A stretch of 64,000 nt of DNA. Source: an uncultured Gammaproteobacteria bacterium (GTDB lineage Bacteria > Patescibacteriota > Microgenomatia > Levybacterales > UBA12049). The notes under the pieces are model-generated. The model worked only from the letters and a program-made list of their open reading frames with translations. It was not told where the DNA came from and searched no databases. The position numbers and the translations under genes are program-made. The DNA lies in assembly GCA_964507055.1 (NCBI GenBank), contig CAZDOJ010000001.1:593313-657312 (forward strand), written 5' to 3'. Positions 353 through 55,600 of this stretch are shown piece by piece (positions within the stretch are counted from its first letter, which is position 1; each line of letters begins with the position of its first letter).

Positions 353-835
353 TTATCGAGTTACCTGGATTGGAGGAGTATATGCACTTGGTGCTGATAC
401 AGTAATTCTATTATTAGTATCTCGTGTTATTGTATAGCCTGTGTTCCATGAGCCTGCACATTCGCCAGCCTCGACACCTGCTTGGTCATTGAGAGTTGGA
501 TCCATTGGAAGTGCTGGCATATAACTTGGTACTAACTGTGCACACAATGCACCTAATGTAGCACCACTTTGTAATGGGGTCGCTGTATCGACTGTCAAAG
601 CTTGCACTGTCGCAGGAAGTTGACCTGTATTGGATGCAGTGTATTGTCCAATTGCATTGAGGACTTGTGTCACATCACTTCTTCGTTTTGTGTCATTTGC
701 TTGTCCAAATTGTCTTGCTGGATTGATAGCGATAAGTGTAATTGCAAGAAGAATTGCGAGAATACCGATAACTACGAGCAATTCGATGAGGGTGAAACCT
801 TTTTGATCTTTATTAAATATTTGTCGGACAGTCAT
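353..835 (-). CDS. Type IV pilin, major-pilin candidate (copy A), with a prepilin N-terminal cleavage/methylation motif
   Basis: N-terminus MTVRQIFNKDQKGFTLIELLVVIGILAILLAI carries the class III signal (G|FTLIE). A hydrophobic alpha1 helix follows, and the C-terminal region has two Cys (D-region-like disulfide). Confidence 0.8.
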   Translation of the reverse strand: MTVRQIFNKDQKGFTLIELLVVIGILAILLAITLIAINPARQFGQANDTKRRSDVTQVLNAIGQYTASNTGQLPATVQALTVDTATPLQSGATLGALCAQLVPSYMPALPMDPTLNDQAGVEAGECAGSWNTGYTITRDTNNRITVSAPSAYTPPIQVTR

Positions 836-2016: not shown

Positions 2017-2493
2017 TTAGCGAGTTACTTGGATTGGGCCAGAGTAAGCACTTGGTGCTGATACTGTAATTCTATTATTTGCGTCTTTTGCAATCGTGTA
2101 ACCAGTATTCCAAGCTCCAGCACAATCTGCTGCTTCAACTCCTGCTTGATCATTCAATGAAGGATCCATTGGAAGTGCTGGCATATAACTTGGTACTAAC
2201 TGTGCACAAAGATTTGGGAAAGAAGTACTATTTAGATTAGCTGATCCACTTGCGAGAGCTTGGACTTCTGGAGGCAGTTGACCTGTATTGGATGCTGTAT
2301 ATTGTCCAATAGCATTGAGAACTTGTGTCACATCACTTCTTCGCTTTGTGTCATTTGCTTGTCCAAATTGTCTTGCTGGATTGATAGCGATAAGTGTAAT
2401 TGCAAGAAGAATTGCGAGAATACCGATAACTACGAGTAATTCGATGAGGGTAAAACCTTTTTGATCTTTATTAAATATTTGTCGGACAGTCAT
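2017..2493 (-). CDS. Type IV pilin paralog (copy B). The N-terminal 74 aa are identical to copy A, the core is divergent, and the C-terminus is conserved.
   Basis: MTVRQIFNKDQKGFTLIELLVVIG... is identical to copy A through ...SNTGQLP, then diverges. The C-terminal motif LCAQLVPSYMPALPMDP...NNRITVSAPSAY is conserved. Confidence 0.8.
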   Translation of the reverse strand: MTVRQIFNKDQKGFTLIELLVVIGILAILLAITLIAINPARQFGQANDTKRRSDVTQVLNAIGQYTASNTGQLPPEVQALASGSANLNSTSFPNLCAQLVPSYMPALPMDPSLNDQAGVEAADCAGAWNTGYTIAKDANNRITVSAPSAYSGPIQVTR

Positions 2494-2595: not shown

Positions 2596-3735
2596 CTATT
2601 TCCCGAGCACTATTGAAACATCAATTGTTCCCTCTTGTCTCTCCTGTACAGTTACATCAGGTTTTATTTTGCGGACTTCATCAAGAACTGCATTGCGTGC
2701 TGTTTGACTCACTGCTCCTGAGAAAGAAACTATTGTACTTGTTGTCGACACACCAGTCTTTACCTGTGTTGTAACTGACTTAAACTCATATGCTTCAAGC
2801 GATGTTCGTAAAGCTTGAGAAGAACTTGATGCTGAAGCACTAACAATTTGTACTGAAAAATCGTCGAATCGAGCTGCTTCTTCAGTGGGTGAAACAGGTG
2901 CAACAGTATTTGCTACTTGGGGCATAACCGTCGGTTGCGTGGATGATTGCGGTGATGGAGCTGGTTGTATACTCTGCATATACACAAGTATCAATACAAC
3001 AACTAAGATTACAAAAATACCTATCATTGCAATTAATCGTTTCTTATTTGTCTTTGGAGGTTCCTTTCCTAATTCTTCCTGAACCACATCAACAGAATCA
3101 TCGCTTTCTGCTTTTTTTTGTGGTGTAAAAGCGGTTTGTGTTTTAATGTCATATTGCTTTAATCCAGCGGCTTTCTGCAATGTAGCATTTACCATACCGA
3201 GGTCCATTACAGGCTTTGAGCTTAAACCATTACCGAGAACCATTCCGGGAAATACTGAGGAAACAGTAAAGCCAAGTTTCTCAAATCCCTTTTCTATGCT
3301 GGTATACAAATCTTGGTTTACTGCACAAACACGTATACCATTTTTGAGAGGAAACGTCCGACTAACAACATTTTCATATGGGACATGTTCAATAAAAAGA
3401 TCAATCTGTGGTTTAAGGTCCTCAAGCGTAACTTTTGGTGTAACTGGGGTCGCGGGCTGTCCAGGTTTTGTAGGTTGTGATGCAGGTTGACTTGGGATAA
3501 CAAAATCTTTGACAAAATATGCATTGTCACTGAGAACAATAATAAAATTAATCGGAGCAATTTTACCATTTGTCACAAAAATCTTTATTTGGTCTTGCAA
3601 GGCATCATCATCAAGAACATCTAAATCACGTACAATATTAGGAGGGAAACGATATTCCACAACAGAACGCAAATACGGTGAATATAGTTGAAATTTATCT
3701 TTTTGTACGTAGATTACTCCTGTTTTTACTGTCAT
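2596..3735 (-). CDS. Pilus-assembly-associated bitopic membrane protein (PilM/PilN/PilO-like role inferred from context only)
   Basis: 379 aa with a roughly 215-aa cytoplasmic N-domain, a single TM (LIAMIGIFVILVVVLILVY) and a Pro/Thr-rich extracytoplasmic C-domain. It is tightly packed in the pilus operon. Confidence 0.45.
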   Translation of the reverse strand: MTVKTGVIYVQKDKFQLYSPYLRSVVEYRFPPNIVRDLDVLDDDALQDQIKIFVTNGKIAPINFIIVLSDNAYFVKDFVIPSQPASQPTKPGQPATPVTPKVTLEDLKPQIDLFIEHVPYENVVSRTFPLKNGIRVCAVNQDLYTSIEKGFEKLGFTVSSVFPGMVLGNGLSSKPVMDLGMVNATLQKAAGLKQYDIKTQTAFTPQKKAESDDSVDVVQEELGKEPPKTNKKRLIAMIGIFVILVVVLILVYMQSIQPAPSPQSSTQPTVMPQVANTVAPVSPTEEAARFDDFSVQIVSASASSSSQALRTSLEAYEFKSVTTQVKTGVSTTSTIVSFSGAVSQTARNAVLDEVRKIKPDVTVQERQEGTIDVSIVLGK

Positions 3736-3736
3736 A

Positions 3737-4165
3737 TTAAAAAACTTCTCTTTCCGATGTAACCGTCAATAAATTATTAACATAAGTTGCTTGAACTTCA
3801 ACAGTCCTTTTATAGTTACCAACCGTTCCTGTTGATGTAATTATATAGGGACTCACTGAGGTACCATTCCCTCCTACCACTATAACTGCTTCTCCTTGCC
3901 CAATTGTCAAAGTCTCACCTGCGTAAGAAGGTGGTGGAGTTCTCAGAACTCTTAATAATGCGTTTTCAGATCCACTCTGTGCTACTTGATACGCAAGTTC
4001 TCCTTGTTGCTGCCGTGTTCCGCTATTGGAATTTACCAAAATCATAACGATTGCCGCTGAAGTAATCGTCAACCCAATAATCATAAAGAACAATAGCGTG
4101 ATGAGTGCCTGTCCCTTTTGATATGAGAAAGATACATAATTTATTTGTCTATCAATTCTCATCAT
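3737..4165 (-). CDS. Minor pilin / pseudopilin-like protein lacking Glu5 (PilX/GspK-like)
   Basis: N-terminus ...QKGQALITLLFFMIIGLTITSAAIV has a prepilin-like G|Q cleavage context followed by a hydrophobic helix. It is 142 aa. Its stop overlaps the start of the next gene. Confidence 0.5.
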   Translation of the reverse strand: MMRIDRQINYVSFSYQKGQALITLLFFMIIGLTITSAAIVMILVNSNSGTRQQQGELAYQVAQSGSENALLRVLRTPPPSYAGETLTIGQGEAVIVVGGNGTSVSPYIITSTGTVGNYKRTVEVQATYVNNLLTVTSEREVF

Positions 4166-4716
4166 TATTGTCTAGCTAAAGTTGTTTGGAATGATCTCGA
4201 TTCATCTCCTGACGGTTGTTGGATTCTACTAACGACAGTGAAGTTTACTCGAATCGTATCGTTATTCGTTCCCGCCCCAATTCTTTGGAACGTCAAGCCA
4301 GTAAGATATGAATTTACACCATTTAGGACATTCACTTCTCCGGTAGTGCCATTGGTCAAACGGAGATTGCCATTACCGTCTAGGCTATATGTATAGTTTA
4401 TAGAATTTACCCGTATTTGCAAAGTGGAGGTCTGAGATCCCGGAGATGCTGGAATTACGATAGCATCATTTGTATTAATTGATTTCATATCATAAAACAT
4501 CTTTCCCATGATATATCTGCCATCTTGATCAACGGTTGATGTAGCTTCAGATTCTAATTGTACTTCAACTATCTGTCCAAACATCGTACTCATGATGCCA
4601 ACAAGGATAGAGAGGATCCCGACATAGAGTACAAGTTCAATAAGCGTAAACCCTTTTTGTCGTTTCTTCCGAGCAGCCTTTGCAGCAAAAAACTTCTGAA
4701 AAAATTTCATATCCAT
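4165..4716 (-). CDS. Pseudopilin / minor pilin with a prepilin-type N-terminal cleavage/methylation domain
   Basis: KKRQKGFTLIELVLYVGILSILV carries the canonical G|FTLIE motif. It is 183 aa. Confidence 0.7.
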   Translation of the reverse strand: MDMKFFQKFFAAKAARKKRQKGFTLIELVLYVGILSILVGIMSTMFGQIVEVQLESEATSTVDQDGRYIMGKMFYDMKSINTNDAIVIPASPGSQTSTLQIRVNSINYTYSLDGNGNLRLTNGTTGEVNVLNGVNSYLTGLTFQRIGAGTNNDTIRVNFTVVSRIQQPSGDESRSFQTTLARQ

Positions 4717-4772
4717 ACCAAGCGTACCTATTTAAAGATTTATATTCAAGAGGAAATCTAATGAAGAGTAAA

Positions 4773-6560
4773 CTACGATCCGCCTGAGCCACTACCTGAA
4801 TTGCCTGATTGATTTTCTTGTAAGGCTTTAATCAAAGTGGAGATATCTGATGTTAGGATATCGTATCCTTCTTTTGTTATGCTTTTCCCTTTTTGTTTAT
4901 TTAGTTCTAATTGCATCGCTTTCAAGGTGGCAACTGCAAGTTTATTTCCTAAAGGCTGCTTATTACTTAGTGTTGCTTTTTCAGCAAGCTCAGTTTGGAG
5001 TAAAAAAGCAGTATAGAAGATGACATTTTTAATTTGTTTTTGTTTATAAAGTTGTTTAATATCATTTTTAAGAAGAGCAAATGTTACTTCGCGAAAAAGT
5101 TCAGTCTTAATATTATTTATATTTCCTTTATCGTACCTGAGCTTATAAGAAGTCACCGCATCTGGAGTTAAAGTACCTGTGTAAGAAGCAGCTTTCATTT
5201 CTCCTTCTTTAGTAAAAATGTACTCATCCAGCTGAAAATTTGGATCTATTGAAGAATAAACTTCGACAGTATAGTTATCTGATTCAGGTTTTGCAAAATA
5301 GAATACTTTAACTGCTGAGGTATTTGTATTGAACGGTTCATCAATAACTTGTGCAGGACTATATTCCAAATAGCTTTCCCCATACGTCCTTCCATTATCG
5401 TCTCTTACTGTTACCTCTGCATCCTTATCTACCACATAGACAATATAGGAAAGATCCGTATGTGAAGGCTCATACCTTCGAACTGACGAAGCCTGATTTG
5501 CATATGATGCCAAGGTAGTTCTATTAAATAAAGGATCATTGATCTCAAAAGTATTACCTATTTTGCCTTTTGCAACTACAAAATGCATACCAGGAGCATC
5601 CACTTGTAATATATTAGGAATTCCTTGATTTAGATCATTTGTAACTTTATTAGTATCAAAATAGATATTAGAATCATATTCTAAAGCGTCATAGTTAAAA
5701 TTTGGATTCTGAACTCTAGATTCTTTAGCTAAACGTCCAAGAGTAGGCCATATAACTCCAAGATTACGATTATAGCCTTTATTATTTTTTAGCCATGTAT
5801 TCAAAGTACCTGGAGTAATCTCTGTTCCGTTTGGCAATTTATCTATTTTGTGATACTTCAGTACCATTGCAAGTGATGAGGTAGCGCAACCACACTGTGC
5901 CATAGTTCTGCCACAACCATATTGAATTTGATCCCCAGCAGCAAAGACATCACTCTCCCATATGGGATTATTATCGTTATATGGAGCAGTCCCTTGTTTA
6001 AATGAAGGTACATTTAAACTAATTCCACCAGAAGGCGGCGTAACAATAGGTTTAGGCGTTACTGATGGAGATATTGGATTAAAGTCGGTATCAATAGCTG
6101 TAGTTAAGAATGGTTCAATGTCATCATCTTTTGTTTTTGAAACTATATAGAGCGTATCTATTGTTTTATTATTTGCACATTTATTTATGAAAGTAAAGTT
6201 AATTATTTGACGGCCTTCTCGCTCATATACTGAAGGATCTAAAAGTTTTCGTATTTCTAATGGTGGAAGCTTCTTAGTATTACATTCAGAATCGAATATA
6301 AACTTTTTTCCTGTATATAGATTAGATATTTCAAGAATATCTCCTACACTATTATTGCCAGGGATATGCGGATCATTATTAACAAAAACATATATATTTT
6401 CCGGTGGATTGTTAACATTTACACTAACTGTAGCTATTGTCTCTGCTGGTGTATTTTCAGGGATACTGAAACTACTTATAACACTGGCAAGACCAGTGGC
6501 ATATGCTGTAGAGTAAGCTGAAAAGAATACTAAAAGAAAGAAAATAAATAATTTAAGCAT
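4773..6560 (-). CDS. Secreted multi-domain protein with a C39-like (Peptidase_C39_2-type) papain-fold cysteine peptidase domain
   Basis: Has a signal peptide (MLKLFIFFLLVFFSAYSTAYA). The motif QYGCGRTMAQCGCATSSLAMVL supplies the Cys, and a downstream PGMHFVVAKG supplies the His, as expected for C39_2. The C-terminus has a Gly/Ser-rich tail. Confidence 0.6.
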   Translation of the reverse strand: MLKLFIFFLLVFFSAYSTAYATGLASVISSFSIPENTPAETIATVSVNVNNPPENIYVFVNNDPHIPGNNSVGDILEISNLYTGKKFIFDSECNTKKLPPLEIRKLLDPSVYEREGRQIINFTFINKCANNKTIDTLYIVSKTKDDDIEPFLTTAIDTDFNPISPSVTPKPIVTPPSGGISLNVPSFKQGTAPYNDNNPIWESDVFAAGDQIQYGCGRTMAQCGCATSSLAMVLKYHKIDKLPNGTEITPGTLNTWLKNNKGYNRNLGVIWPTLGRLAKESRVQNPNFNYDALEYDSNIYFDTNKVTNDLNQGIPNILQVDAPGMHFVVAKGKIGNTFEINDPLFNRTTLASYANQASSVRRYEPSHTDLSYIVYVVDKDAEVTVRDDNGRTYGESYLEYSPAQVIDEPFNTNTSAVKVFYFAKPESDNYTVEVYSSIDPNFQLDEYIFTKEGEMKAASYTGTLTPDAVTSYKLRYDKGNINNIKTELFREVTFALLKNDIKQLYKQKQIKNVIFYTAFLLQTELAEKATLSNKQPLGNKLAVATLKAMQLELNKQKGKSITKEGYDILTSDISTLIKALQENQSGNSGSGSGGS

Positions 6561-6614
6561 ACTTAATATATTATTATTATACTAATGTATTCTTATATTA
6601 TATGTCAATAACTT

Positions 6615-9092
6615 TTATTGTGAGTAATTCCAAGTAATATCTTGTAAGACAGGAGTTACTGTTTGATCTGTTAAAGACTCAAGTGTCACTTTATATCTAA
6701 AACAGCGCTCTGGATTAACAAAGGCCCCACTCATAAAGCTTCCAAATGGTATTTTATCAGAAATAACTGTTGTTACAGGAGTATAATAAGAAGTGTCACT
6801 CCCATCCGGCCCAATATATGTGTAACCCGAAGTTGGACAACTACCATTGGATAGTCCTTTTAACCCTACTTGAATTTTAACAGATGTATTTGTAGGCTGT
6901 ATAATATTCGCAAGCAGTCGATTAAATGCTCTTAAAATTGTGCTTGGCTCCACCGAAGCCGTATCAAATACCTGAGATTCAAACGTCCCACTTGGCATAA
7001 AAATTGCATTGTCCGGTCCACCTTGGATAATCTTTAACTCATTTGCAGTCGTATTTGCTACCATATATACATAGTTATCATAATCCGCTTCAGATACTGA
7101 AGTCAGATCATTAAACCCTTGATTGAAATCTACCCCTGAACAATACGTTGGTGTCGCCTCTGTCTCAGTATTGAGAACCTGATATTCTTGAGCATTTCCT
7201 CCACCAGATATACCATCTTTTCCTACCAGTACAGCACGTTGCCCATTAAGTACAGTCAGAGATCGCCGTGGATATAATTCTGAAGCACCAGAAGGTGCAG
7301 GGGAAGCTCCATTATAAAAACCTGACGAAGGTGTGCTGCTTCCTGTAAGAAATGTTGGCGAAGTTTTAGAAGTTGTGTTAAGGATATAAAATTGCTTACT
7401 ATCACTTCCTCCATTTGAGGAAATATATGCCCTACTACCATCTGCATTGGAGAATACTGAATTAGAGGCTTCTTCTGTACCTGATCCTGTATTAAAATCT
7501 TTACTCCCGCTTACTTTCCATGCTGTTGCTCCACCAGAAATACGTCCACAACTATTTCCGGTTAAGGAACTTCCACTTGTAGGTGCTGTCGTTACGTTGA
7601 CGATCTCAAATTCAGGATTTGTTACGCCTCCCACAGCGACATACACATATGTATTGTTTCCAACTTTAACTGGAAAAATATCATTTGTGGCAAGCAATTC
7701 AATGTTTCCTCCATCAGAACAATCGTTGTGGATTGGAGAGGTCGTATCTCCCCAAGAAGTTCCTGACTGTCCAGAATCATACTTCGCAGCTGTTCCTGGC
7801 GAACCTGGTCGACATTCATAACCATCAAGTTCGATCCTACAGCCGTACATATCAAGTCCATTTGATGTTGATTTACTATCGATATTTGCCAAATTAAACA
7901 CGTATAGATATCCACCTGAAGCAACATATCCACGATCCCCTAATACCGCGACGGATGAAGCACCATAACTATAAGGCGATTGATCATTACTGGAACTTGC
8001 AATACCGTTATATCTTCTAGTATTAAAAAAAGTTTTGTATTTATAGAGTTTATTAACTGGATCTTGATACTCTCCACTTGTTGTATTGTCATTGGCACTA
8101 TTCCCATCATTTACCCAAACAACAATAACTTCTTTATCAGGAAGATTTGTTCCGAGAATTGCATACGTGTTTCCACCAGAGGACTTATAATATTTCACAT
8201 CGGTTGTTGAAAAATTATTATCAAGTCCTGTACCTGATTGTGGAGCATATCCTGATGCATACTCTGAAGCATTCATCGTAAATTTGCCTCTTAGTGTTGT
8301 CGCAGGCGTGTCAGTATTTGCAGTTACATTTACATAAGCTAATTTTGCTGAGCTTGTAGCATAAGGTGCTGTTGCTACGAATACATCATTAGGTTGAGCC
8401 GTTGTAGCACTTGCCGTAGCAGCAACAGCAACAGGCGGTCCATCAGGCAAATCAATTGTAGCTTCTCCTCCTAAATCATTCAAAGCAAAGGCGGGCGTAC
8501 ACCATTTGGCTTTATTGTTATTTGCCAATTTTACTTCCCCACCGGAATCATTTGTCACTTGAATATTTACTCCAGTTCCTGCGTCAAATTGTGCTTTTGT
8601 TGTATGAGAGGCAGTAAGATTACTTGTTCTCGTCAAAAAGATTGTTGAGGTAATCGATGAAGGAATTGGTCTTGTCCAAGAAACAGTAATATCTGCTTTT
8701 CTAGTCGAGGGATCAAGTGTATTTCCTGCAGAAGTTGAAGCAATTGCTCCGGCTGATGTTCTATAAACACTTGATAAAATAACCTGTTGCGTAAATCCTG
8801 CAGAAGTTGAAGCAGAACCTGAGGATAATGACCATCTGTTACTGACAATCACAGGATGATAGGGAGATCCGATAGTTAAGCCTGAAAGTGTTGCCCAATC
8901 ACTATCTCTGACACTTTTGACGGCAGTTTCTGTTTCTTTCATCAGTGCAATTGCCTGGAGACGCTGCTCCTGCTGCGGTTTTCCATCACGTGACGCGAGA
9001 AGTCCTGAAACCAATCCTGGCAAGATAAGTGCTGCCAAACCAATGGTTAAAACCAACTCAATAAGTAATTGTCCTCGTTGCAATTTTTTCAT
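6615..9092 (-). CDS. Giant pilin-like protein (825 aa) with a prepilin-type N-terminus. It is a candidate tip adhesin or minor pilin.
   Basis: The N-terminus MKKLQRGQLLIELVLTIGLAALILPGL fits G|QLLIE with Glu5. The remainder is a large Ser/Thr/Gly/Asn-rich, beta-type region. Confidence 0.65.
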   Translation of the reverse strand: MKKLQRGQLLIELVLTIGLAALILPGLVSGLLASRDGKPQQEQRLQAIALMKETETAVKSVRDSDWATLSGLTIGSPYHPVIVSNRWSLSSGSASTSAGFTQQVILSSVYRTSAGAIASTSAGNTLDPSTRKADITVSWTRPIPSSITSTIFLTRTSNLTASHTTKAQFDAGTGVNIQVTNDSGGEVKLANNNKAKWCTPAFALNDLGGEATIDLPDGPPVAVAATASATTAQPNDVFVATAPYATSSAKLAYVNVTANTDTPATTLRGKFTMNASEYASGYAPQSGTGLDNNFSTTDVKYYKSSGGNTYAILGTNLPDKEVIVVWVNDGNSANDNTTSGEYQDPVNKLYKYKTFFNTRRYNGIASSSNDQSPYSYGASSVAVLGDRGYVASGGYLYVFNLANIDSKSTSNGLDMYGCRIELDGYECRPGSPGTAAKYDSGQSGTSWGDTTSPIHNDCSDGGNIELLATNDIFPVKVGNNTYVYVAVGGVTNPEFEIVNVTTAPTSGSSLTGNSCGRISGGATAWKVSGSKDFNTGSGTEEASNSVFSNADGSRAYISSNGGSDSKQFYILNTTSKTSPTFLTGSSTPSSGFYNGASPAPSGASELYPRRSLTVLNGQRAVLVGKDGISGGGNAQEYQVLNTETEATPTYCSGVDFNQGFNDLTSVSEADYDNYVYMVANTTANELKIIQGGPDNAIFMPSGTFESQVFDTASVEPSTILRAFNRLLANIIQPTNTSVKIQVGLKGLSNGSCPTSGYTYIGPDGSDTSYYTPVTTVISDKIPFGSFMSGAFVNPERCFRYKVTLESLTDQTVTPVLQDITWNYSQ

Positions 9093-9093
9093 A

Positions 9094-9594
9094 CTAATTT
9101 ATACTTGATATGACTCCATATCTATTTAATCGTATCACCTTTTGTTCATTCGTCATGCTATCGCGTACCGTAATAATAGCGGATGTACTTGCATAATTTG
9201 TGACTTCGCCGCTTCCTTTCGCAAATGTTATTGAAGAACTTGCTGAAGCAATAGTGATAGTCAAAGTATTTTGATATGTAACCGCAAAGTTAGCCGACGC
9301 ACTTGCAACATATGTACCTTTATATAAAATGTATCGATGATTTGTAGAATCAAAGCGGATACCATAATTATCAATTACGCCCGTACCACTTGTGTCACCT
9401 GTCATTGCTTTCGCCTGCTGATCTTTTAAATCTGCGACAAATGTATTAAAAGTCGAATTCAATTGGGATTTATTTTGAAAACTAAAAAGGTTTACTGTCG
9501 CGATGCTTGCTAGCACAGCAAAAATCGACATGACGAGAAGAAACTCAACAAGTGTAAATCCTTTTTGATTTGAATGATTGAAAAGATTTTTCAT
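9094..9594 (-). CDS. Pseudopilin (GspH/FimT-like) with a prepilin-type N-terminal domain
   Basis: NQKGFTLVEFLLVMSIFAVLASIA motif. It is 166 aa. Confidence 0.7.
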   Translation of the reverse strand: MKNLFNHSNQKGFTLVEFLLVMSIFAVLASIATVNLFSFQNKSQLNSTFNTFVADLKDQQAKAMTGDTSGTGVIDNYGIRFDSTNHRYILYKGTYVASASANFAVTYQNTLTITIASASSSITFAKGSGEVTNYASTSAIITVRDSMTNEQKVIRLNRYGVISSIN

Positions 9595-9602
9595 CGTACA
9601 TT

Positions 9603-10655
9603 TTACCTCGCTCCTACTTGGCCGATTAATTGGTAAATTGGTGCGATAATTGCCATCATCATTCCTCCGATTAATACACCAACGCCTACAAGCATAATAG
9701 GTTCTATGAGAGCAGTGAGGGTTTTTAATGTACTTGAGACTTGATAATCGAGATATTCTGAAACATCCAGCATCGCTTTGTCCAAAGATCCACTACGCTC
9801 ACCTGCTTCAATAATTTTGATCATAATTGGAGGAATCACCTTTTTACTATCGCGTAATCCCTCAGACAACTTCTTCCCACCAAACACAACAATTTTTGTA
9901 TGTTTGATCGCATTTTGAATATTCTTCTTGATAACCACATCCTGCGTTAATTCCAAGGCTGTAGTAATCGGAATACCTGCTGTGAGAAGTAGATACAAAC
10001 TTCTGGTAAATCTTGTTAAATCAATTTGCTGCGTCAAAAGTGAAATCAATGGCAAAGAAGTAAGTGCTCGAACAATTGCCATGCGATTTTGTTTGTAAAC
10101 AAAAATTACAGATGCAATCATAATTGTGATAACAGCAATAATTGGAATTGTATATGTAAGTAATGCATTGGAAAGAAATATCATAATCTGTGTAGGCAGT
10201 GGCAATTCTACGTTCAATCGAAGGAATACGGTCGCAATTCGAGGCACAACCACAACTAATATAACCACCATTACAAGGATAAAAACAATAACAATAAATA
10301 TTGGATAAATGAGTGCTGATTTGATCTTATCGTTAAATTCTATTTCTTTTCGTATACTGAGCTTTAAATCTTCAAGTGCTGTATCAAGTGTACCCGAATC
10401 TTCGGAGGCTTTAATAATATTGACTGTAACCGGATCAAATATTTTGGGGAACTTTTGAAATGTTGTATACATATGCTGTCCCTGTGCCAAGTCAGAACGC
10501 ATCTCCATAAGCAATTTTTTGGGTCCGCCTTTTGCATCTTCCAATAATGACTCTACCGTTTCAAGAATAGGAATACCTGATGAAAGCATCGTATGAAGAT
10601 TACTAACTAATGCAATTTTATCGCTCGCAGAAAGTGATGTATTATATTTTTTCAT
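9603..10655 (-). CDS. pilC: Type IV pilus inner-membrane platform protein PilC (GspF/T2SS-F family)
   Basis: Two T2SSF-like repeats and three TM segments. It sits immediately downstream of pilB. Confidence 0.85.
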   Translation of the reverse strand: MKKYNTSLSASDKIALVSNLHTMLSSGIPILETVESLLEDAKGGPKKLLMEMRSDLAQGQHMYTTFQKFPKIFDPVTVNIIKASEDSGTLDTALEDLKLSIRKEIEFNDKIKSALIYPIFIVIVFILVMVVILVVVVPRIATVFLRLNVELPLPTQIMIFLSNALLTYTIPIIAVITIMIASVIFVYKQNRMAIVRALTSLPLISLLTQQIDLTRFTRSLYLLLTAGIPITTALELTQDVVIKKNIQNAIKHTKIVVFGGKKLSEGLRDSKKVIPPIMIKIIEAGERSGSLDKAMLDVSEYLDYQVSSTLKTLTALIEPIMLVGVGVLIGGMMMAIIAPIYQLIGQVGAR

Positions 10656-10658
10656 AGA

Positions 10659-12344
10659 CTAAAGTGCTTCAATCTTTGTAACACGGAGTACTTCTTCAAT
10701 TGTAGTTTGACCTGTTACGACTTTGCTCAAACCATCATCAAGCATGGTTGTCATACCACCTTCAACCGCTTTTTTAAGAATAAGATCAGAGTCATTATTT
10801 TCAGTAATTAATTTTTTAATATCATTGTTTACTTCTAATACTTCAAAGATACCTAGTCGACCGGAATAACCAGTATTGTGACAAACTTCACAACCTTTAC
10901 CTTTGTAAATACGTATATCTTTTTTTGTACCAAAATGTTTTTTAATTGCTTCTTTTGGCAAATTCAAAATCAATTGATCTGAAGTAACATCCTGTGATCC
11001 TTTACACATTTCGCAAATCTTACGAACAAGTCTTTGTGCGATGATAACATTTACGGTAGAGGCAACGAGAAATGGTTCAACATTCATATCTGTTAAACGT
11101 GGTAACGCACCAGAAGCATCATTGGTATGAAGTGTAGACAAAACTAAATGCCCTGTAAGTGCTGCGTTTACAGCAATTCCAGCCGTCTCAGAATCACGAA
11201 TTTCTCCGACAAGAATCACATTAGGATCTTGACGAAGGATTGACCGTAAACCTGAAGCAAAAGTTAAATTTGTTTTAGCATTTGTCTGAATCTGATTAAT
11301 ACCCTTCAATCGATATTCAACTGGATCTTCAATTGTTGTGATATTTTTCTCACGTGAATTAATAATCTTCAACACTGAATAGATAGAAGTTGATTTACCT
11401 GAACCTGTTGGACCGGTTGAGAGGATTAAGCCAAAAGATTTTTTGAAGGCATTGGTTACTTTCTCTAAATCTTTTTGACTCATACCAAGATCTGCCAAGG
11501 AAAATTGTCTGAAATGAGAAGCAAGCAAGCGCATAACAATCTTCTCACCATAAATAACTGGCAGGATAGAGACACGCAAATCTAAGTTCTCTTCTTCAAG
11601 TTCAATACGAATTTTTCCATCCTGTGGTGCCATGTGCTCATCTGTACGCAAACTTGCGAGCACTTTTATACGCGTGGATATCTGATCATGGAGTTTCTTA
11701 GGAAGGGCTAATACATCATGCAAAATACCATCCACACGGAAACGAACCAATGTATCCTTTTCTTCCGGTTCGATATGAATATCAGAAGCACGATCTTGAT
11801 ATGCGTATTGAATAATCAAATCTACAATCTTGGCAATCGGGACATCAATAGAAGCAGTTTTACCTGCAGTACGAACTTGCTCAGAAACAAGCGTATCAAA
11901 AGTCTTTTGCAAATCTCTTCGATACAGCCAAAGTTTGTTATAGATATCACGTTCTGTTGCCAAATACGCAAACACTTTTTGCCCGGTTTTCTTGGCGATC
12001 ATTTCCTGAATCAACGTATTTTTCGGATCAACCATCGCAACTTTAATACCATCTTTATCACGGGCGAAAGGAATTGCTTTATATTTACGGGCCAACCGTT
12101 CGGGAATAATACGAAATGCCTCTTCAGGGATAGAGATCTTTCCAAGTACAACAAATGGGATTTTAAACGCATCAGAGATAAGGACACCGAGGTTTTCGTC
12201 TGTGACAACATCTTTCTCAATTAACGCATCTGTGAGCGTAATATCAGAATTCTTTGCATACTCAAGGACTTCTTCAAGTTTTTTTTGATCGGCGATTTTA
12301 ACATTAAGAAGAAGCGTCTTTAACTGATCATCTGTAATCAACAT
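10659..12344 (-). CDS. pilB: Type IV pilus assembly ATPase PilB (GspE family)
   Basis: Walker A GPTGSGKST, Asp and His boxes, and a tetracysteine Zn motif (CEMCKGS...CEVCHNTG). It is 561 aa. Confidence 0.9.
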   Translation of the reverse strand: MLITDDQLKTLLLNVKIADQKKLEEVLEYAKNSDITLTDALIEKDVVTDENLGVLISDAFKIPFVVLGKISIPEEAFRIIPERLARKYKAIPFARDKDGIKVAMVDPKNTLIQEMIAKKTGQKVFAYLATERDIYNKLWLYRRDLQKTFDTLVSEQVRTAGKTASIDVPIAKIVDLIIQYAYQDRASDIHIEPEEKDTLVRFRVDGILHDVLALPKKLHDQISTRIKVLASLRTDEHMAPQDGKIRIELEEENLDLRVSILPVIYGEKIVMRLLASHFRQFSLADLGMSQKDLEKVTNAFKKSFGLILSTGPTGSGKSTSIYSVLKIINSREKNITTIEDPVEYRLKGINQIQTNAKTNLTFASGLRSILRQDPNVILVGEIRDSETAGIAVNAALTGHLVLSTLHTNDASGALPRLTDMNVEPFLVASTVNVIIAQRLVRKICEMCKGSQDVTSDQLILNLPKEAIKKHFGTKKDIRIYKGKGCEVCHNTGYSGRLGIFEVLEVNNDIKKLITENNDSDLILKKAVEGGMTTMLDDGLSKVVTGQTTIEEVLRVTKIEAL

Positions 12345-12389: not shown

Positions 12390-12749
12390 TTATGCCTTAC
12401 TAACCTCGAGGATTTTTGCATATAACTTATCAAAATCAAAAAAACTTTTATTGACATATCCTTTCGCTCCAAGCAGGCGTGCTTTCTCAACATCTTTTTC
12501 TTGACCGAGCGTTGAGAATACCAATGTAGGGATATTTGTCCCTTCTTTCTTCATCGTTTCGAGAACTTCAAAACCATCCTTCTTTGGCATAATAATATCA
12601 AGTAGAACTAAATCAGGATGGAATGAAGCAATCTTTTGTAACCCTTCTTCTCCATCAGCGGCGACATCAATTTCTATTCCCTTTTCTTTTAATTTCGTGG
12701 AATAAAAACCGCGGAAAAATGTATCATCTTCAATGAGCAGAATTTTCAT
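12390..12749 (-). CDS. Standalone response regulator receiver (CheY/PilH-like) protein
   Basis: MKILLIEDDTFFRGFY...DLVLLDIIMPKKDGFEV...KGYVNK is a full REC signature. At 119 aa it has no output domain. Confidence 0.85.
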   Translation of the reverse strand: MKILLIEDDTFFRGFYSTKLKEKGIEIDVAADGEEGLQKIASFHPDLVLLDIIMPKKDGFEVLETMKKEGTNIPTLVFSTLGQEKDVEKARLLGAKGYVNKSFFDFDKLYAKILEVSKA

Positions 12750-12761
12750 AAGCTATATCTA

Positions 12762-13152
12762 TTATACCTTAATAGTACTAATTGATTGCAATTCCTCAAT
12801 TTGTGGATGGAGGTCAATTTCATTGTCTTGTGTTTCAAGTTGCGTGATTGATGTCTGCATCTGTGTCACAGCTTTTACGAGAGCTTGCTGGATTTCAGGT
12901 GTAATAACAAAGCCCTCATCAATCTTGGCTTTGAAGATTCGTTCGATCAATCGGGAGAGTTGACCAATTGAGTTGTACTCCATCATCAAACTCTGACTTC
13001 CCATTGAATGTGCTGCCCGATGAATCGTTTCAACCATTTCTTTGTCATCCATATTAAGCGATCCAATACCTTGGAGTTGTTCCATATATGGTTTTGCTGA
13101 TTGAAGATAGAGAGACTTATACTTGAGTTTGTCTTCGCTTGAAAGTGGCATA
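12762..13152 (-). CDS. Hpt-like (histidine phosphotransfer) small helical protein. The ORF can extend to 13268, but the start at MPLSSEDK (13152) avoids overlap with the divergent gene.
   Basis: AAHSMGSQSLMMEYNSIGQLSRLIE resembles the Hpt HxxKG phospho-histidine helix. The assignment is tentative. Confidence 0.4.
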
Positions 13153-13226
13153 GTAATGCACTTACTATACTCAGAATTAGAAATGTTGTCAACGAATGCC
13201 TGAGGTATGATAATATTAAATATACT

Positions 13227-14417
13227 ATGCCCTCTTTTGTCGTCTGGTTTAAGGATGCTGATACACATGAATCTTCGCTTCTAGGAAAAGCTAGTAAACA
13301 TATTGGGAATCTTACACAAGCCGGGTTTCCTATCGCTCCTGGATTTATTATCACTTCAAAGGCATATCACACATTCCTTAAAGAAAATAAGCTTGATGTA
13401 AAAATCAAAAAGCTTTTAACTACCGTAAACATAGAACATCCTGAATCCGTTTATCAAGTTGCTCGACATGTACAAGATCTTATTTCACAAGCATCTATTC
13501 CGGAGAATGTAGCTCAAGAAATAAAGGATTTCTACAAACGCCTCAACACAAAAAAAGCTTCACTTGAAGCACATACAACAGTCAAGCCGTCTCATAAAAT
13601 TCTCAAACAACAAATCAGCGACTTTGAAAGTTTGGCGAAAGGATTGAAAGAAGCATGGACACAACATTTTGAACCAAATCACTTCTGGAAACGTCATGAA
13701 CATGGACATGATCATCTCGATACTGGTGTTGAAGTACTAATCCAATTGGATCTAAATGCTGTTAAGACAGGGATCATGCATACTGTAAATGTTCATAATC
13801 AGAGTAAAGACACTCTCTCCATTACTGTTAGCCATCCGCATACCTCGGATGAATATACTCTAACGAAGAAAAACCTGATGTTAATTAAACGAAAACTCTC
13901 CCACTATGGAAAAGCTCCAAAACTTACCTATCAGGAACTCTTTAAGATTGCAAAACTTGGCAAAGCAATTGAGCAACATCTCTACTTCCCGCAGCAAATC
14001 CAATGGGCAATCGTTGATGACCAAGTATATGTACTTCATACAAAACCATTTTCAGATCTTCCAAAAACGAAAAAGGAATTAAAAAAGAAACTTGCTGCAG
14101 CTCGAGGAATCTCTATAACCAAAACAATTGGCTCAGGTCCAGTAACTATTATTCAGCATGAACATGATTTAGATAAGATACATGAACATATTGTTGTAGT
14201 ATCCACGATTAAAAAAGAGCAATTAAATAAACTGAAAAAAGCAAAAGGAATTATTGCTGAAAGAGGTGATACTCATTCAGAAGTTTCAGTCCTCATCAGA
14301 GAACTTGGGATACCCACTATTTACGGAGTTACGAACGCAACCAAGAAACTGAAAAATGGCTATGTTATCACAATTCATGCAGGTAAAGGTGAAGTTTATC
14401 TCGGTGGATTTCATTAA
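13227..14417 (+). CDS. PEP-utilising enzyme family protein: a PpsA/PPDK N-terminal nucleotide-binding domain plus a mobile phosphohistidine domain, with no C-terminal TIM-barrel
   Basis: The N-terminus LLGKASKHIGNLTQAGFPIAPGFIIT...WAIVDDQVYVLHTKP matches the PPDK_N fold. The C-terminus GSGPVTII...IAERGDTHSEVSVLIRELGIPTIYGV matches the PEP-utilisers swivel domain, with the conserved His. Confidence 0.7.
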   Translation: MPSFVVWFKDADTHESSLLGKASKHIGNLTQAGFPIAPGFIITSKAYHTFLKENKLDVKIKKLLTTVNIEHPESVYQVARHVQDLISQASIPENVAQEIKDFYKRLNTKKASLEAHTTVKPSHKILKQQISDFESLAKGLKEAWTQHFEPNHFWKRHEHGHDHLDTGVEVLIQLDLNAVKTGIMHTVNVHNQSKDTLSITVSHPHTSDEYTLTKKNLMLIKRKLSHYGKAPKLTYQELFKIAKLGKAIEQHLYFPQQIQWAIVDDQVYVLHTKPFSDLPKTKKELKKKLAAARGISITKTIGSGPVTIIQHEHDLDKIHEHIVVVSTIKKEQLNKLKKAKGIIAERGDTHSEVSVLIRELGIPTIYGVTNATKKLKNGYVITIHAGKGEVYLGGFH

Positions 14418-23235: not shown

Positions 23236-24909
23236 TTATTTGTTCTTTGCGGCAGCAGCAACCAATCCAAGAAACACTGGATGTGGTTTAAGAGGGCGAC
23301 TCTTGTACTCTGGATGACCCTGTGTACCGATATAATAAGGATGATCAGGTACTTCAATAATTTCAACAAGTCCCTCTTGTACTGATCGAGCTGAAATAAC
23401 TAATCCTGCCTTTTCTAAATCTTCAGCAAACTTTCCATTTACTTCATATCTATGTCGATGACGCTCTGATGTTAATCCTTTTGACTCATCAATAAACTGA
23501 TCATATTTTTTATAAAGCTCCCAAGCCAATGTCTTTTTCTTCACTTTTGCGTCCCATCCACCCAGACGCATCGTTCCACCATATGCTCGTCGTTCCATCA
23601 ATTCTTTTTGTGTTGGAATCATATAAATGACTGGATGCTTCGTTTTAGGCACGTTTTCAGTGGTATTTGCATCCCGCCATTTTAGCACTCCACGAGCGAA
23701 AGCGATAACAGCGAGTTGCATACCATAACAAAGACCCAAATATGGGATATTATTTGTACGTGCATAATCTGCTGCTGCGATCATTCCCTCAGCACCTCTT
23801 TCTCCCCAACCAATTGGCACAATGATCGCATCCGGTGTACCAATAATTTTCTCTGCACCGTCTTTTTCAATCTTCTCAGCACTAACCCAGTGAGTCTTTA
23901 TACCAACACCTTCAGCCCAACCTGCATGATCAATCGCATCAAATAATGCTGCATATGAATCACGAAGCTGATATTCTCCAGTTCCAAAGTACTTTCCAAT
24001 AATTGCGATATTAATTGTCTTTTTCTTTGGTGCTTTTACTTTTTCTACAAATTTTTTCCATTCCTTGAGCTTTGGTTCTTTGTACGTAAGACTAAATTTA
24101 GATAAGATTCTTTTTACAATTCCTTGCTCATGAAGCACAAGAGGAATTTCATATACTGTATCTAAGTCAGGATTGGAGATGATATCCTCTGGATGCATAT
24201 TGCAGAACAATGCGAAACGATCCTTTCTACGCTGATCAATTGGCTTTTCTGATCGAGCTATGATGAAATCAGGCTGAATACCCATTGAATTTAATGTCTT
24301 TACTGAAAGCTGTGTAGGCTTCGTTTTAGGCTCTCCTAAGTGCCCAGGTGTAGGAACATAGCTTACATGGACATGGATAACGTCTCCAGGGTTTCTGAGC
24401 GTCATGATACGTGATGCTTCATAATATAAAACATTTTGGTATTCACCAGCTGTTCCACCAAGCTCAATTAATACAATGTCAGCATTTTTCTTTTCACCAA
24501 GCCCTTTAATTCGGGAAATAATTTCATCAGTAATATGCGGGATAGCCTCTACATCTTCACCTTTATACTCAAATCGTCGTTCTCGATCGATAACTGTCTG
24601 ATAAATGCGTCCAATTGTTACGAAACTATCTTTATCCATTTCAACATCAAGGAATTTCTCGTATGTTCCGATATCCATATCCCCTTCTGTACCGTCTTCG
24701 CAAAGGAATGGATCTCCATGTTCAATAGGATTAATAGTACCTGCATCGAGGTTGAGATAATTTTCAAATTTAATAGGGGCGACTGTAAAACCTGCTTGTT
24801 TTAAGAGGAAAGCAATGGAAGCCGATGTAAGGCCTTTACCGATTCCGGAGATAACTCCTCCAGAGACAAATATATATTTCGTATGCTTTTTCAATTGTGT
24901 TCGGGGCAC
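23236..24909 (-). CDS. pyrG: CTP synthase
   Basis: N-terminal synthetase domain KYIFVSGGVISGIGKG and a C-terminal GATase domain (GLCYGMQ, HPE). Confidence 0.95.
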   Translation of the reverse strand: MPRTQLKKHTKYIFVSGGVISGIGKGLTSASIAFLLKQAGFTVAPIKFENYLNLDAGTINPIEHGDPFLCEDGTEGDMDIGTYEKFLDVEMDKDSFVTIGRIYQTVIDRERRFEYKGEDVEAIPHITDEIISRIKGLGEKKNADIVLIELGGTAGEYQNVLYYEASRIMTLRNPGDVIHVHVSYVPTPGHLGEPKTKPTQLSVKTLNSMGIQPDFIIARSEKPIDQRRKDRFALFCNMHPEDIISNPDLDTVYEIPLVLHEQGIVKRILSKFSLTYKEPKLKEWKKFVEKVKAPKKKTINIAIIGKYFGTGEYQLRDSYAALFDAIDHAGWAEGVGIKTHWVSAEKIEKDGAEKIIGTPDAIIVPIGWGERGAEGMIAAADYARTNNIPYLGLCYGMQLAVIAFARGVLKWRDANTTENVPKTKHPVIYMIPTQKELMERRAYGGTMRLGGWDAKVKKKTLAWELYKKYDQFIDESKGLTSERHRHRYEVNGKFAEDLEKAGLVISARSVQEGLVEIIEVPDHPYYIGTQGHPEYKSRPLKPHPVFLGLVAAAAKNK

Positions 24910-24950
24910 GATTTATGTTACCAAATCAAACTAAATGTGTCAATACGATA

Positions 24951-25376
24951 TTAATTGACCAGTTTCAGCTCATCTATATTTAAAACTACTAGTGGACCAT
25001 CTATATTTTTACAGACATTTTGAACACATTGCATCGTAGCACTTACAAACTTTCCTTGAATAATCATGACTGGTTTGTCTTCAAAAGGTTGTAAATCTAT
25101 TGAAGTTTTGCCAACTGTTACACTAAAAAAGTTGTTAGTACTATTCAGTCCATCAGAAACGACACCCTCTCCTTTATATGTAACACAATAGATCTCACGA
25201 TTTTGCACAGGTGAGGCATTCCATCCTTGGACTGGACATTGTTTCGTAATGATGTAGCCACCTTGTGGGTTATTGAGAGGAAAAAACTGTGGAGGTACTG
25301 CAGTAAAGAATTTCCAAAGAGAAACTCCAAGCAAAAAAAACAAAGTGACTGTAAAAATAATGCCAAACTTTTTCAT
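24951..25376 (-). CDS. Hypothetical secreted or membrane-anchored small protein
   Basis: N-terminal signal/TM (MKKFGIIFTVTLFFLLGVSLW). No recognisable domain. Confidence 0.4.
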   Translation of the reverse strand: MKKFGIIFTVTLFFLLGVSLWKFFTAVPPQFFPLNNPQGGYIITKQCPVQGWNASPVQNREIYCVTYKGEGVVSDGLNSTNNFFSVTVGKTSIDLQPFEDKPVMIIQGKFVSATMQCVQNVCKNIDGPLVVLNIDELKLVN

Positions 25377-25389
25377 AGATAAAAGTAAG

Positions 25390-25461
25390 GCAGATTATGA
25401 GCGGGCGATGGGAATCGGACCCACTGCCTTCTCCTTGGGAAGGAGACATTCTACCGGTGAA
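25390..25461 (-). tRNA. tRNA-Gly (anticodon CCC); CCA not encoded
   Basis: Manual fold of the reverse complement GCGGGCGTAGTTCACCGGTAGAATGTCTCCTTCCCAAGGAGAAGGCAGTGGGTCCGATTCCCATCGCCCGC. It has a 7-bp acceptor, anticodon loop TTCCCAA and a GGTCCGATTCC T-arm. Confidence 0.8.
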
Positions 25462-25550
25462 CTACGCCCGCAATAACACGGCTATAATAACAAATTTTGA
25501 AAGAGAATTCATTAGGGAAATTGTGGCTGGAGATTAGCTTGAAAAACCAA

Positions 25551-26423
25551 TCATTTAACGCGAGGAATTTTTAGCTTATTATCAGCATGGATCAAACTTG
25601 GATTTACCAATTTATTTGCTCGGGCAATATCTACCCATTTATAACCATTACCATATGCTCTAACTGAAATAGTCCAAAGTGAATCACCCTTAACTACTTG
25701 ATACGTATCTGTAGTGATCTTAGACCCAACAATTGATGATGATGTATTTTTTTGTTCTTTTTGTGCAACATCTGTTTTTGTATCTTCAATGGTTGGAGTC
25801 TTTGCAGTTACCTTTGGTAATTTTAATTTACTTCCTGTACTAATCTGTCCTGGATTGGACAAATTATTTGCTCGAGCGATATCTACCCAATTGTATCCAC
25901 TCTTATATTGTCTTTCGGCAATTGTCCAAAGACTATCGCCTGCTTTTACAGTATATTCACCTGCTGTTGGTGCTGAAATCTTTGTTTCTTCTTTTTGAGG
26001 AGCTTTTGTCGGAACTGTAGTTACCGTTGCAACGACCTTTGTCGGATTTGGAGTAACTGTTGGTGCATTGGTTGGTTTTGCAGTTGGAGGTAATGTTGGT
26101 CTTGCTGTCGGCTTTACAGAAGGTGCTGCAGTTACTGTTGCATTAATCTCTGTGTTGGCTTTTTCTTGAGGTGATACTGTTAATTGTAATGCTCTTTGTG
26201 AAATTTGAGCAATACTTTGGGATTCTTGCGTTACAGGATTTGTAGGTACAGAATTTCTGTTATGAACAAATGAGAGAAGAAGTGCTGTTGAGATAATAAC
26301 CACGACAATACCAAGAACCAAACTAGTGTATGACTCTCCAAATCGGAGATAGTCAAAGAATGTACTTGGTGTTTTTGATTCTTCCTGTGAAGGGATTTCC
26401 TCTTGAATTACTTTTTTTGGCAT
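25551..26423 (-). CDS. LysM-domain peptidoglycan-binding protein. It has an N-terminal TM, a Pro/Thr-rich linker and two LysM repeats.
   Basis: Two repeats of YTVKAGDSLWTIAERQY...WVDIARANNL / YQVVKGDSLWTISVRAY...WVDIARANKL. Confidence 0.8.
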   Translation of the reverse strand: MPKKVIQEEIPSQEESKTPSTFFDYLRFGESYTSLVLGIVVVIISTALLLSFVHNRNSVPTNPVTQESQSIAQISQRALQLTVSPQEKANTEINATVTAAPSVKPTARPTLPPTAKPTNAPTVTPNPTKVVATVTTVPTKAPQKEETKISAPTAGEYTVKAGDSLWTIAERQYKSGYNWVDIARANNLSNPGQISTGSKLKLPKVTAKTPTIEDTKTDVAQKEQKNTSSSIVGSKITTDTYQVVKGDSLWTISVRAYGNGYKWVDIARANKLVNPSLIHADNKLKIPRVK

Positions 26424-26521
26424 ATATTTAATGAGGCAGAAATTACTCTGGGAGAAGTAAAAACAGTATACATCAACTTCTGTAGTATTTCAACTTATAA
26501 TATTACTAGAAGTGATACTTG

Positions 26522-26595
26522 CGGGATGGACGGGACTCGAACCCGCGACCTCCTCCGTGACAGGGAGGCGCTCTAACCAACTGAGCTACCACCCC
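26522..26595 (-). tRNA. tRNA-Asp (anticodon GTC); the 3' end is GCA, not CCA
   Basis: Reverse complement GGGGTGGTAGCTCAGTTGGTTAGAGCGCCTCCCTGTCACGGAGGAGGTCGCGGGTTCGAGTCCCGTCCATCCCG. It has canonical D- and T-arms and anticodon loop CTGTCAC. Confidence 0.85.
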
Positions 26596-26690
26596 AAATA
26601 TTATTTGGGTACTAAAAACTCGAGTTTTTAGCAGTCGATACATTTTATCCTAATCTTGCACCCCCGTCAATCCTTTGCTACACTGCATTT

Positions 26691-49049: not shown

Positions 49050-49120
49050 CTCAAAAATGATACCACAAGCACAAAGTTTGGTAAAGCTATAGAGATTTGA
49101 TAAGCATCTTTTGACATTTT

Positions 49121-55579: not shown

Positions 55580-55600
55580 GTCAGATGGAGAATAATTAGT

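Follow-up and report, generated by a model that had tools for sequence, protein, structure and literature searches.

Several machines that cross the bacterial envelope are associated with peptidoglycan hydrolases, as FlgJ is with flagella, and BfpH and R64 PilT are with type IVb pili. At the tip of the type IVa pili of Pseudomonas and Myxococcus, the beta-propeller protein PilY1 works with four core minor pilins. Type IV secretion machines have hydrolases too, such as PrgK and the VirB1-like TgaA (PMC12102498), and among the Saccharibacteria, Nanosynbacter lyticus TM7x has large minor pilins, PilX1, with a lectin-like jelly roll, and PilX2, with a heptabladed propeller, the latter being needed for host binding (PMC11623550). 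Here we analyse a type IV pilus operon from the Candidate Phyla Radiation (CPR, or Patescibacteria), located on the minus strand of a stretch of 64,000 nucleotides (the window; contig CAZDOJ010000001.1 of assembly GCA_964507055.1, positions 593,313 to 657,312). It contains, directly after the gene for a large pilin of 825 residues, the gene for a modular protein of 595 residues that belongs to the Peptidase_C39_2 family.

The pilus operon and its big pilin belong to known kinds; what seems new is a C39_2-type hydrolase inside a type IV pilus operon. We found no report of such an arrangement in the searchable literature, and a Microgenomates genome paper lists a secreted C39 peptidase and nothing further (PMC7143001). 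The likeness to VirB1/TgaA, PrgK, FlgJ, BfpH and R64 PilT is that a hydrolase gene sits within the operon for a filament machine that spans the envelope. The differences are that those enzymes are lytic transglycosylases, muramidases or of the CHAP/NlpC type, whereas this one is of the C39_2 family (and may hydrolyse peptidoglycan), and that it is optional, being present in a minority of homologous operons, and carries exchangeable targeting modules. With moderate confidence, we read it as an accessory extracellular envelope hydrolase, encoded in a canonical CPR pilus operon, that would be co-expressed with the pilus and act where the pilus works.

The C39_2 protein and its place in pilus operons

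The 595-residue protein scores 29.6 bits against PF13529 (gathering cut-off 24), within the range of its relatives (26-43 bits). A preliminary description of the window had seen in it a signal-peptide protein with a Peptidase_C39_2-like Cys/His dyad, and rightly so: Cys225, His326 and Asp342 are invariant in 34 family members at 23-68% identity, and the predicted fold is papain-like, with its catalytic Cys and His, the Gln of the oxyanion and the Asp/Asn. By eye, the protein starts with a Sec-type signal peptide, MLKLFIFFLLVFFSAYSTAYA/TG (the slash marks the predicted cleavage site, here and below), and it has no membrane anchor. Then follow a lineage-specific N-terminal module (N-module, ~22-168), a Pro/Thr linker, the Peptidase_C39_2 domain (~180-365), a beta-sandwich (~370-490), a bundle of helices that weakly matches FIMAH (494-585) and a Gly/Ser tail. 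The AlphaFold model is confident over 180-585, which comprises the papain-like domain, the beta-sandwich and the helical bundle; over the N-module its predicted local distance difference test score (pLDDT) is below 50. We infer from these features that the protein is a hydrolase of the papain fold, secreted through Sec and equipped with a functional Cys-His-Asp triad.

It is a member of Peptidase_C39_2 and not of the transporter-fused C39 family, since it has no ABC transporter domain, possesses a signal peptide, and matches PF03412 (Peptidase C39 proper) with 19.8 bits, under the cut-off of 22. Its named comparators are the C39-like protein 3ERV of Bacillus anthracis (PF13529) and the C39 leader peptidases of PCAT/AMS transporters (6MPZ, ComA), from which it differs in lacking the ABC transporter fusion and in being a predicted secreted, multidomain protein, with its exchangeable N-module, beta-sandwich and helical bundle. 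Further comparators are the double-glycine peptidase LahT150 (11.5), prostaphopain B (11.4) and the pseudomurein endoisopeptidase PeiR (11.3), together with PCAT1, ComA and streptopain; among PDB sequences the family profile finds no more than marginal matches (6mpz, E=0.009).

The family is CPR-wide, and its members follow one plan: an exchangeable surface-binding module, the C39_2 catalytic domain, a beta-sandwich and, last, a helical bundle. What varies greatly is the N-terminal region, which may be a Kelch propeller, a lectin-like DUF1080 domain, a GH43-like domain or a Vgb-lyase-type propeller, or may match no recognisable domain. In the genome closest to the window, whose big pilin is 87% identical, the C39_2 orthologue aligns only from residue 169 (73% identity over 169-584), and its N-terminus is a Vgb-lyase-type propeller (E=1e-75) in place of the window's 150-residue module; other members of the same clade carry Kelch propellers there. 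Three different N-modules are thus found on one conserved catalytic body in a single clade. An exchange of binding and catalytic modules is also characteristic of modular phage endolysins and bacterial autolysins, and the same Vgb-type propeller is found here on C39_2 or M23 domains: in a neighbouring gene, the pilus operon of locus L070 encodes a second protein, predicted to be secreted, which combines a Vgb-type propeller (E=5e-99) with an M23-type metallopeptidase domain.

The position of the gene was followed in two collections: 71 loci obtained from metagenomes with a profile of the 825-residue protein, and 80 loci from a scan for the C39_2 family with one genome per species. In the clade of the window (the window itself, L006, L157, L158, L160 and L161; core identity 51-74%) the C39_2 gene directly follows the big pilin gene in all six members examined. 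In more distant lineages it is found before the big pilin (L016, L107), between the genes for the 142-residue pilin-like and 379-residue membrane proteins listed below (L137), or between the PilX-like gene and the major pilin (L070, L071); and in L016 and L043, two contigs of one genome, the contig order suggests copies flanking the big pilin on both sides. The preliminary description had made its proposal depend on synteny with pilus genes and on a conserved dyad and, as far as sequences can tell, both are present.

Embedded copies fall into at least three sequence groups and occupy four different junctions. The L016/L043 and L070/L071 groups are ~35% identical to the window clade, and their nearest relatives, L074, L075 and L079 (60-66% identity), are not pilus-linked. 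From these sequence relationships one would argue that the gene entered pilus operons several times, or was kept there through rearrangements; either way, they argue for a functional tie. This tie is supported also by the proteins that combine a Vgb-lyase-type propeller with C39_2, six out of seven of which are pilus-embedded (five of the six found in the open reading frames that were scanned, plus P0006 in L158; the exception is L037).

The gene is clearly an accessory insertion in the pilus operon, and not a machine part. A dedicated part would be present throughout the homologous operons, and a C39_2 gene lies inside the operon in only 3 of the 71 pilin-anchored loci, and in 58 out of 59 loci the next pilin follows the big one without an interruption. 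Moreover, in ~75 of the 80 genome loci the homologue lies away from pilus genes. The peptidase is not an integral component of the pilus.

It could then be a mere passenger, with an envelope role unrelated to the pilus, that landed in permissive junctions of a highly expressed operon. The fact that most family members are not pilus-linked speaks for this, as do the unrelated genes (kinases, sensor proteins, an 8-kb block) that are likewise inserted in pilus operons, the IS200-like transposase that adjoins the L070 copy, and several traits of the window gene. It is flanked by spacers of 54 and 56 nucleotides, whereas the other genes of the operon abut or overlap; its GC content is the lowest in the operon (0.34, and 0.31 in the N-module, versus 0.39-0.40 in its neighbours); and a promoter of its own is possible, given two 10/12 matches to sigma70-like sites upstream of it (minus strand, 6624-6597 and 6608-6579), which are weak evidence because the total of such sites in the region is no higher than in shuffled sequences. 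We nevertheless find a passenger distinctly unlikely: the same junction has been kept in 6/6 clade members across 51-74% identity, embedding is seen in several sequence groups and at several junctions, embedded copies show a strong enrichment of the rare Vgb-propeller architecture, and one genome (L016/L043) seems to have two copies around its big pilin.

Other genes have been observed at these junctions. In relatives of the window, a further variable gene comes after the C39_2 gene at the same junction (L158 5372-7366, L160 9864-10673, L161 12349-13392); in L158 its product is another large protein of pilin-like type, which has a propeller of LVIVD repeats. In L113 (9265-17598; also in L114) the 8-kb block of unrelated genes lies between the big pilin and the next pilin, and it includes two small Peptidase_C39_2 proteins (209 and 216 residues) without an obvious signal peptide. 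The inserts of L113, L118, L096 and L122 consist of kinases, sensors and unrelated genes, with no common cargo. The L070 operon (4030-12153) contains a different pilin of 600 residues, the Vgb-propeller plus M23-like protein, a Vgb-propeller plus C39_2 protein and an IS200/Y1-transposase-like open reading frame, and one of its minor-pilin open reading frames has a GIY-YIG-like N-terminal extension.

The pilus operon and its propeller-bearing minor pilin

The interval 2596-12344 of the minus strand holds eight tightly packed open reading frames, with coordinates identical to those of the preliminary description, whose reading as a type IV pilus locus with pilB and pilC agrees with Pfam and NCBIfam matches. 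This interval was too narrow: two major-pilin genes downstream, and Hpt and CheY-like genes upstream, belong to the same conserved locus. Its features, from upstream to downstream, are the following.

12762..13268, minus strand: Hpt-like phosphotransfer protein (weak match to PF01627 Hpt on the called gene; 129 residues in the public call, 168 in the open reading frame from the first ATG)
12390..12749, minus strand: single-domain CheY-like response regulator, 119 residues (the called gene matches PF00072; its place upstream of pilB is conserved)
10659..12344, minus strand: PilB-type extension ATPase with N-terminal MshEN domain, 561 residues (T2SSE E=5e-129; MshEN E=1.5e-14)
9603..10655, minus strand: PilC/GspF platform protein, 350 residues (T2SSF E=3e-48, two repeats; NCBIfam GspF and PilC matches)
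9094..9594, minus strand: GspH/ComGD-like minor pilin, 166 residues (N_methyl E=4.9e-9; ComGD E=3e-10 and GspH E=5e-9, both under their cut-offs)
6615..9092, minus strand: modular minor pilin, 825 residues (predicted class III signal peptide MKKLQRG/Q; predicted helix, beta head, seven-bladed beta-propeller and C-terminal beta-sandwich)
6561..6614, minus strand: AT-rich spacer of 54 nucleotides upstream of the peptidase gene (two sigma70-like matches)
4773..6560, minus strand: modular cysteine hydrolase, predicted to be secreted, 595 residues (Peptidase_C39_2 E=1.2e-6)
4165..4716, minus strand: minor pilin, 183 residues (N_methyl E=1.4e-7; KG/FTLIE motif)
3737..4165, minus strand: PilX/GspK-like pilin-like protein without Glu5, 142 residues (PilX_N E=0.023, under the cut-off; hydrophobic N-terminus QKG/QALITLL)
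2596..3735, minus strand: bitopic membrane protein, 379 residues (cytoplasmic N-domain, one transmembrane segment, probable LytR_C-type ectodomain; conserved position)
2017..2493, minus strand: major-pilin candidate A, 158 residues (N_methyl E=2.5e-10; GspG-like; 11/12 promoter-like site at 2559-2530)
353..835, minus strand: major-pilin candidate B, 160 residues (N_methyl E=2.3e-10; 11/12 promoter-like site at 902-873; terminator-like hairpin at 330-309)

The window thus encodes the PilB ATPase, the PilC/GspF platform and the major and minor pilins of a type IV pilus. PilB scores 537.8 bits against TIGR02538 (type_IV_pilB), under the equivalog cut-off of 675.65, and its MshEN domain spans residues 60-134. 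N_methyl is over its cut-off in four open reading frames (353-835, 2017-2493, 4165-4716 and 9094-9594). Of the three short pseudopilins previously described, two (166 and 183 residues) are clear N_methyl pilins, and the third, of 142 residues, is only PilX/GspK-like and lacks Glu5; its position is conserved in ~50 loci. The 379-residue bitopic protein is the sole PilM/N/O-type alignment candidate, without a match to PilM, PilN or PilO. The window copy has no Pfam match at E up to 1, and its homologues match LytR_C, with E=2e-12 in L070 and weakly in 5 of 10 others; it is a candidate for an alignment or wall-contact subunit.

All homologues come from CPR assemblies, mostly of Levybacteria and other Microgenomates. 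Proteins identical to those of the window occur on an NCBI contig of 1.32 Mb and in several Logan assemblies. Across the 71 loci the order Hpt, response regulator, pilB, pilC, 166-residue pilin, big pilin, 183-residue pilin, 142-residue protein, 379-residue protein and major pilin is nearly invariant, and the Hpt and response regulator pair lies upstream of pilB in many related loci. This near-invariant order and the rarely interrupted junction after the big pilin establish the locus as the canonical type IV pilus operon in a monoderm CPR group of the Microgenomates type. Many of the contigs among the records L006-L084 that have clearly CPR-type genes and CPR best matches are titled 'uncultured Gammaproteobacteria bacterium', and others Bacteroidetes, Chloroflexota or Woesearchaeota; it looks as if these titles were wrong, or the contigs mis-binned.

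The Hpt protein and the CheY-like regulator, together with the MshEN domain of PilB (a cyclic di-GMP-binding type), suggest a control of pilus extension by a phosphorelay and cyclic di-GMP. The scan for promoters and terminators gave no more promoter-like sites in the region than in shuffled sequences, and operon boundaries therefore rest on spacing alone. An Rfam scan of the window found three tRNAs only, and no regulatory RNA in the pilus locus. The two major-pilin paralogues are identical over the N-terminal half but have diverged over the C-terminal half, and are separated by a Cyclase-family gene (PF04199, 1348-1971). The same layout of the pair is found in L006 and L157, and it may represent pilin variation or two filament types.

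The 825-residue protein has hallmarks of a pilin in both its sequence and its predicted structure. The prepilin-type N-terminus (MKKLQRG/QLLIELV) reported in the preliminary description stands: in an alignment of 35 homologues the Glu at mature position 5 (E12) never varies, and Gly is the consensus residue at -1, which together give a predicted pilin processing signal. Pfam N_methyl misses the window protein, which has no Pfam match at all, and one homologue does match it. In the AlphaFold model (pLDDT 82.9) a helix of 60 residues (5-64) and a small beta head formed by strands at 77-163 make up a lollipop; beyond the head comes a large beta-rich body, and then a C-terminal beta-sandwich. The model predicts a seven-bladed beta-propeller, and so fits the tip adhesin that had been proposed.

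The view of such a giant pilin as unusual is no longer tenable, since the protein is a conserved core gene of the pilus operon in hundreds of CPR genomes (over 330 relatives of 800-1035 residues, at 53-87% identity), and propeller-bearing minor pilins have already been described in PilX2. Like PilX2 and PilX1 of TM7x, it is a CPR minor pilin with a lollipop N-terminus, encoded among other minor pilins, and with PilX2 it shares a seven-bladed beta-propeller. This is a likeness by description and not by sequence comparison: the propeller of PilX2 is of the RCC1 type, and the 825-residue protein has no Pfam match. Also, PilX2 was reported without a predicted PilD signal, whereas our protein has Gly-1 and Glu5, and its family differs from PilX2 in the extra C-terminal beta-sandwich and in its unusual conservation. 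PilY1 is not itself a pilin, unlike our protein, in which a pilin N-terminus bears the propeller; the proposed likeness to PilY1 is one of function. Together with the three other pilin-like proteins, the 825-residue protein most likely belongs to a tip or priming complex. Such high conservation would not quite be expected of an adhesin, and it hints that the ligand is conserved or that the protein has a structural role.

The proximity of the big pilin and the peptidase could mean that the latter matures, trims or releases a pilus component, be it the 825-residue pilin or an adhesin, in the manner of LapG on LapA or of leader removal by C39 peptidases. The two genes are neighbours throughout the window clade, and in L016/L043 the peptidase seems to lie on both sides of the pilin. 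However, the big pilin is highly conserved in hundreds of operons without any such peptidase, embedded copies are also found at junctions away from it (L137, L070), the variable lectin and propeller N-modules suggest binding to polymer surfaces over one conserved protein, and no double-glycine-type substrate was identified. We judge processing very unlikely. Of the attachment-and-processing module put forward in the preliminary description, attachment fits the propeller-bearing pilin; among the roles proposed, pilin processing has the least support.

The same description had remarked on the lack of pilD, pilT and a secretin. None is present in the window: phmmer finds no second T2SSE-type ATPase in its 64 kb; no A24-type motif is found there, the polytopic membrane open reading frames being Wzy, GT87 and PMT-type glycosyltransferases; and there is no secretin among its translated open reading frames, a search in which no dedicated secretin hidden Markov model was run. 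Beyond the window, no PilT paralogue of PilB lies within 10 kb in ~150 related loci, and in the closest relative the next 5 kb past the locus have sugar-phosphate enzymes and holA but no PilD. Nevertheless, these absences do not characterise the system. The window makes up ~5% of a contig of 1.3 Mb, and CPR pilus genes are split over loci, so that the absence of pilD and pilT carries no weight; in TM7x they are spread over four, one complete assembly locus being without PilT and PilD (PMC11623550). No secretin is expected in monoderm CPR, its absence from another Microgenomates genome having been explained by an envelope that is not Gram-negative (PMC7143001).

A replacement of PilD by the C39-like enzyme, which might be imagined from the lack of pilD in the window and from the fact that both enzymes cleave after small residues, is rejected as extremely improbable. 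With a Sec signal peptide and no membrane domain, the enzyme would be on the wrong side of the membrane for a prepilin leader that faces the cytoplasm; it is missing from most homologous operons; and CPR genomes commonly encode PilD at another locus (PMC11623550, PMC7143001).

Outside the pilus locus, the cumulative GC skew of the window has its minimum at ~24000-26700, where the AT skew changes sign and the genes, which lie on the minus strand to the left, pass over to the plus strand on the right. This region looks like a replication origin, though without a nearby dnaA.

Possible targets of the hydrolase

We propose the following course of events. The four pilin-like proteins would form a priming or tip complex, in which the 825-residue pilin would place its propeller and beta-sandwich at the tip of the pilus as a binding module, a functional analogue of PilY1 and PilX2; the two major pilins would be separately promoted. 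The C39_2 enzyme, exported by Sec and presumably co-expressed with the pilus through its location in the operon, would cut the peptide bonds of a polymer in the cell envelope where the pilus acts, either in the stem or cross-link of peptidoglycan or in a surface-layer protein. The envelope of a partner or host cell would be the likelier target. We favour it because close relatives differ in the binding module but share a conserved catalytic body and a conserved pilus, and because CPR bacteria depend on host cells that they contact through pili. The view of the enzyme as a wall hydrolase finds support in the M23-type domain that accompanies the same propeller in L070, and in the occurrence of Peptidase_C39_2 among the catalytic domains of lysins.

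Several observations weigh against this proposal. Co-transcription with the pilus is deduced from spacing alone, and a separate promoter for the C39_2 gene is possible. The N-module of the window protein shows no recognisable fold and no Pfam match at E up to 1, and its role in targeting is extrapolated from relatives. A Foldseek search of the catalytic domain against the PDB gave nothing significant. The neighbour-joining tree gives the same pattern of embedded groups, without support values. The M23 domain of L070 scores 27.7 bits, just under the cut-off of 28.7, with a visible HxH motif and a weak match to a PHROG metallo-endopeptidase. Peptidase_C39_2 is listed among the lysin catalytic domains of phages of Gram-positives (bioRxiv 10.1101/2021.02.23.432618), but tblastn of our catalytic domain found nothing in 50,697 phage genomes and the window protein matches no PHROG, which leaves a direct kinship with endolysins unsupported and sets the protein apart from them despite their common habit of exchanging modules. 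Finally, the usual home of the family beside glycosyltransferases argues equally for a self-directed envelope role.

Indeed, self-directed wall remodelling is the serious rival, in which the C39_2 protein is an autolysin that opens the cell's own peptidoglycan or surface layer for passage of the pilus, as VirB1, PrgK and FlgJ do for their machines. The gene lies inside the operon of the machine, together with the gene for a membrane protein whose ectodomain is probably of the wall-associated LytR_C type and, in L070, with one for an M23-type enzyme, and machine-associated peptidoglycan hydrolases are known in monoderms (PMC12102498). The default neighbourhood of the family is one of envelope biogenesis: GT2, GT4 and GT-C glycosyltransferases and methyltransferases, with lepB, parB, rpmA/rplU, rodA/ftsW and ileS nearby. 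According to a review of papain-like enzymes, C39_2 genes also adjoin teichoic-acid transporter genes. On the other hand, more than 90% of homologous pilus operons have no such gene, so that it is not generally required, although a copy elsewhere in the genome could serve; and a fast exchange of N-modules between close relatives is unexpected for an enzyme that works on its own conserved wall. Serious as it is, we think this explanation rather unlikely.

The window has further genes related to the envelope. At 49868-63632 lies a surface-glycan cluster (Wzy_C, GT87, two PMT_2-type GT-C, GT2, methyltransferases and sugar nucleotidyltransferases) at which, unlike in most other CPR genomes, there is no C39_2 gene. 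Other wall-directed proteins are a coiled-coil M23 peptidase (E=4e-14; 47862-49163, minus strand) and a double-LysM protein with a Pro/Thr-rich linker (25551-26423, minus strand).

The accessory envelope hydrolase that we favour can be extended to a more speculative scheme, which we consider unlikely. The junctions of the pilus operon would be a payload slot for exchangeable lytic effectors, that is, secreted C39_2 or M23 hydrolases with swappable propeller or lectin targeting modules, which would be produced along with the pilus and would bind and locally breach the envelope of a partner caught by it. If true, this would provide ultrasmall episymbionts with a contact-coupled opening of the host for nutrients or DNA, with a host range set in part by the targeting module.

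Much of what we describe serves as a reference for annotating the canonical pilus operon of Microgenomates with its conserved, propeller-bearing minor pilin, and is useful if unsurprising. How CPR bacteria attach to their hosts and extract resources from them is largely obscure, pili being the only well-supported organelle of contact. A hydrolase, predicted to be secreted, that has been recurrently recruited to the pilus operon and whose binding module is swapped provides a concrete candidate for the step that follows attachment.

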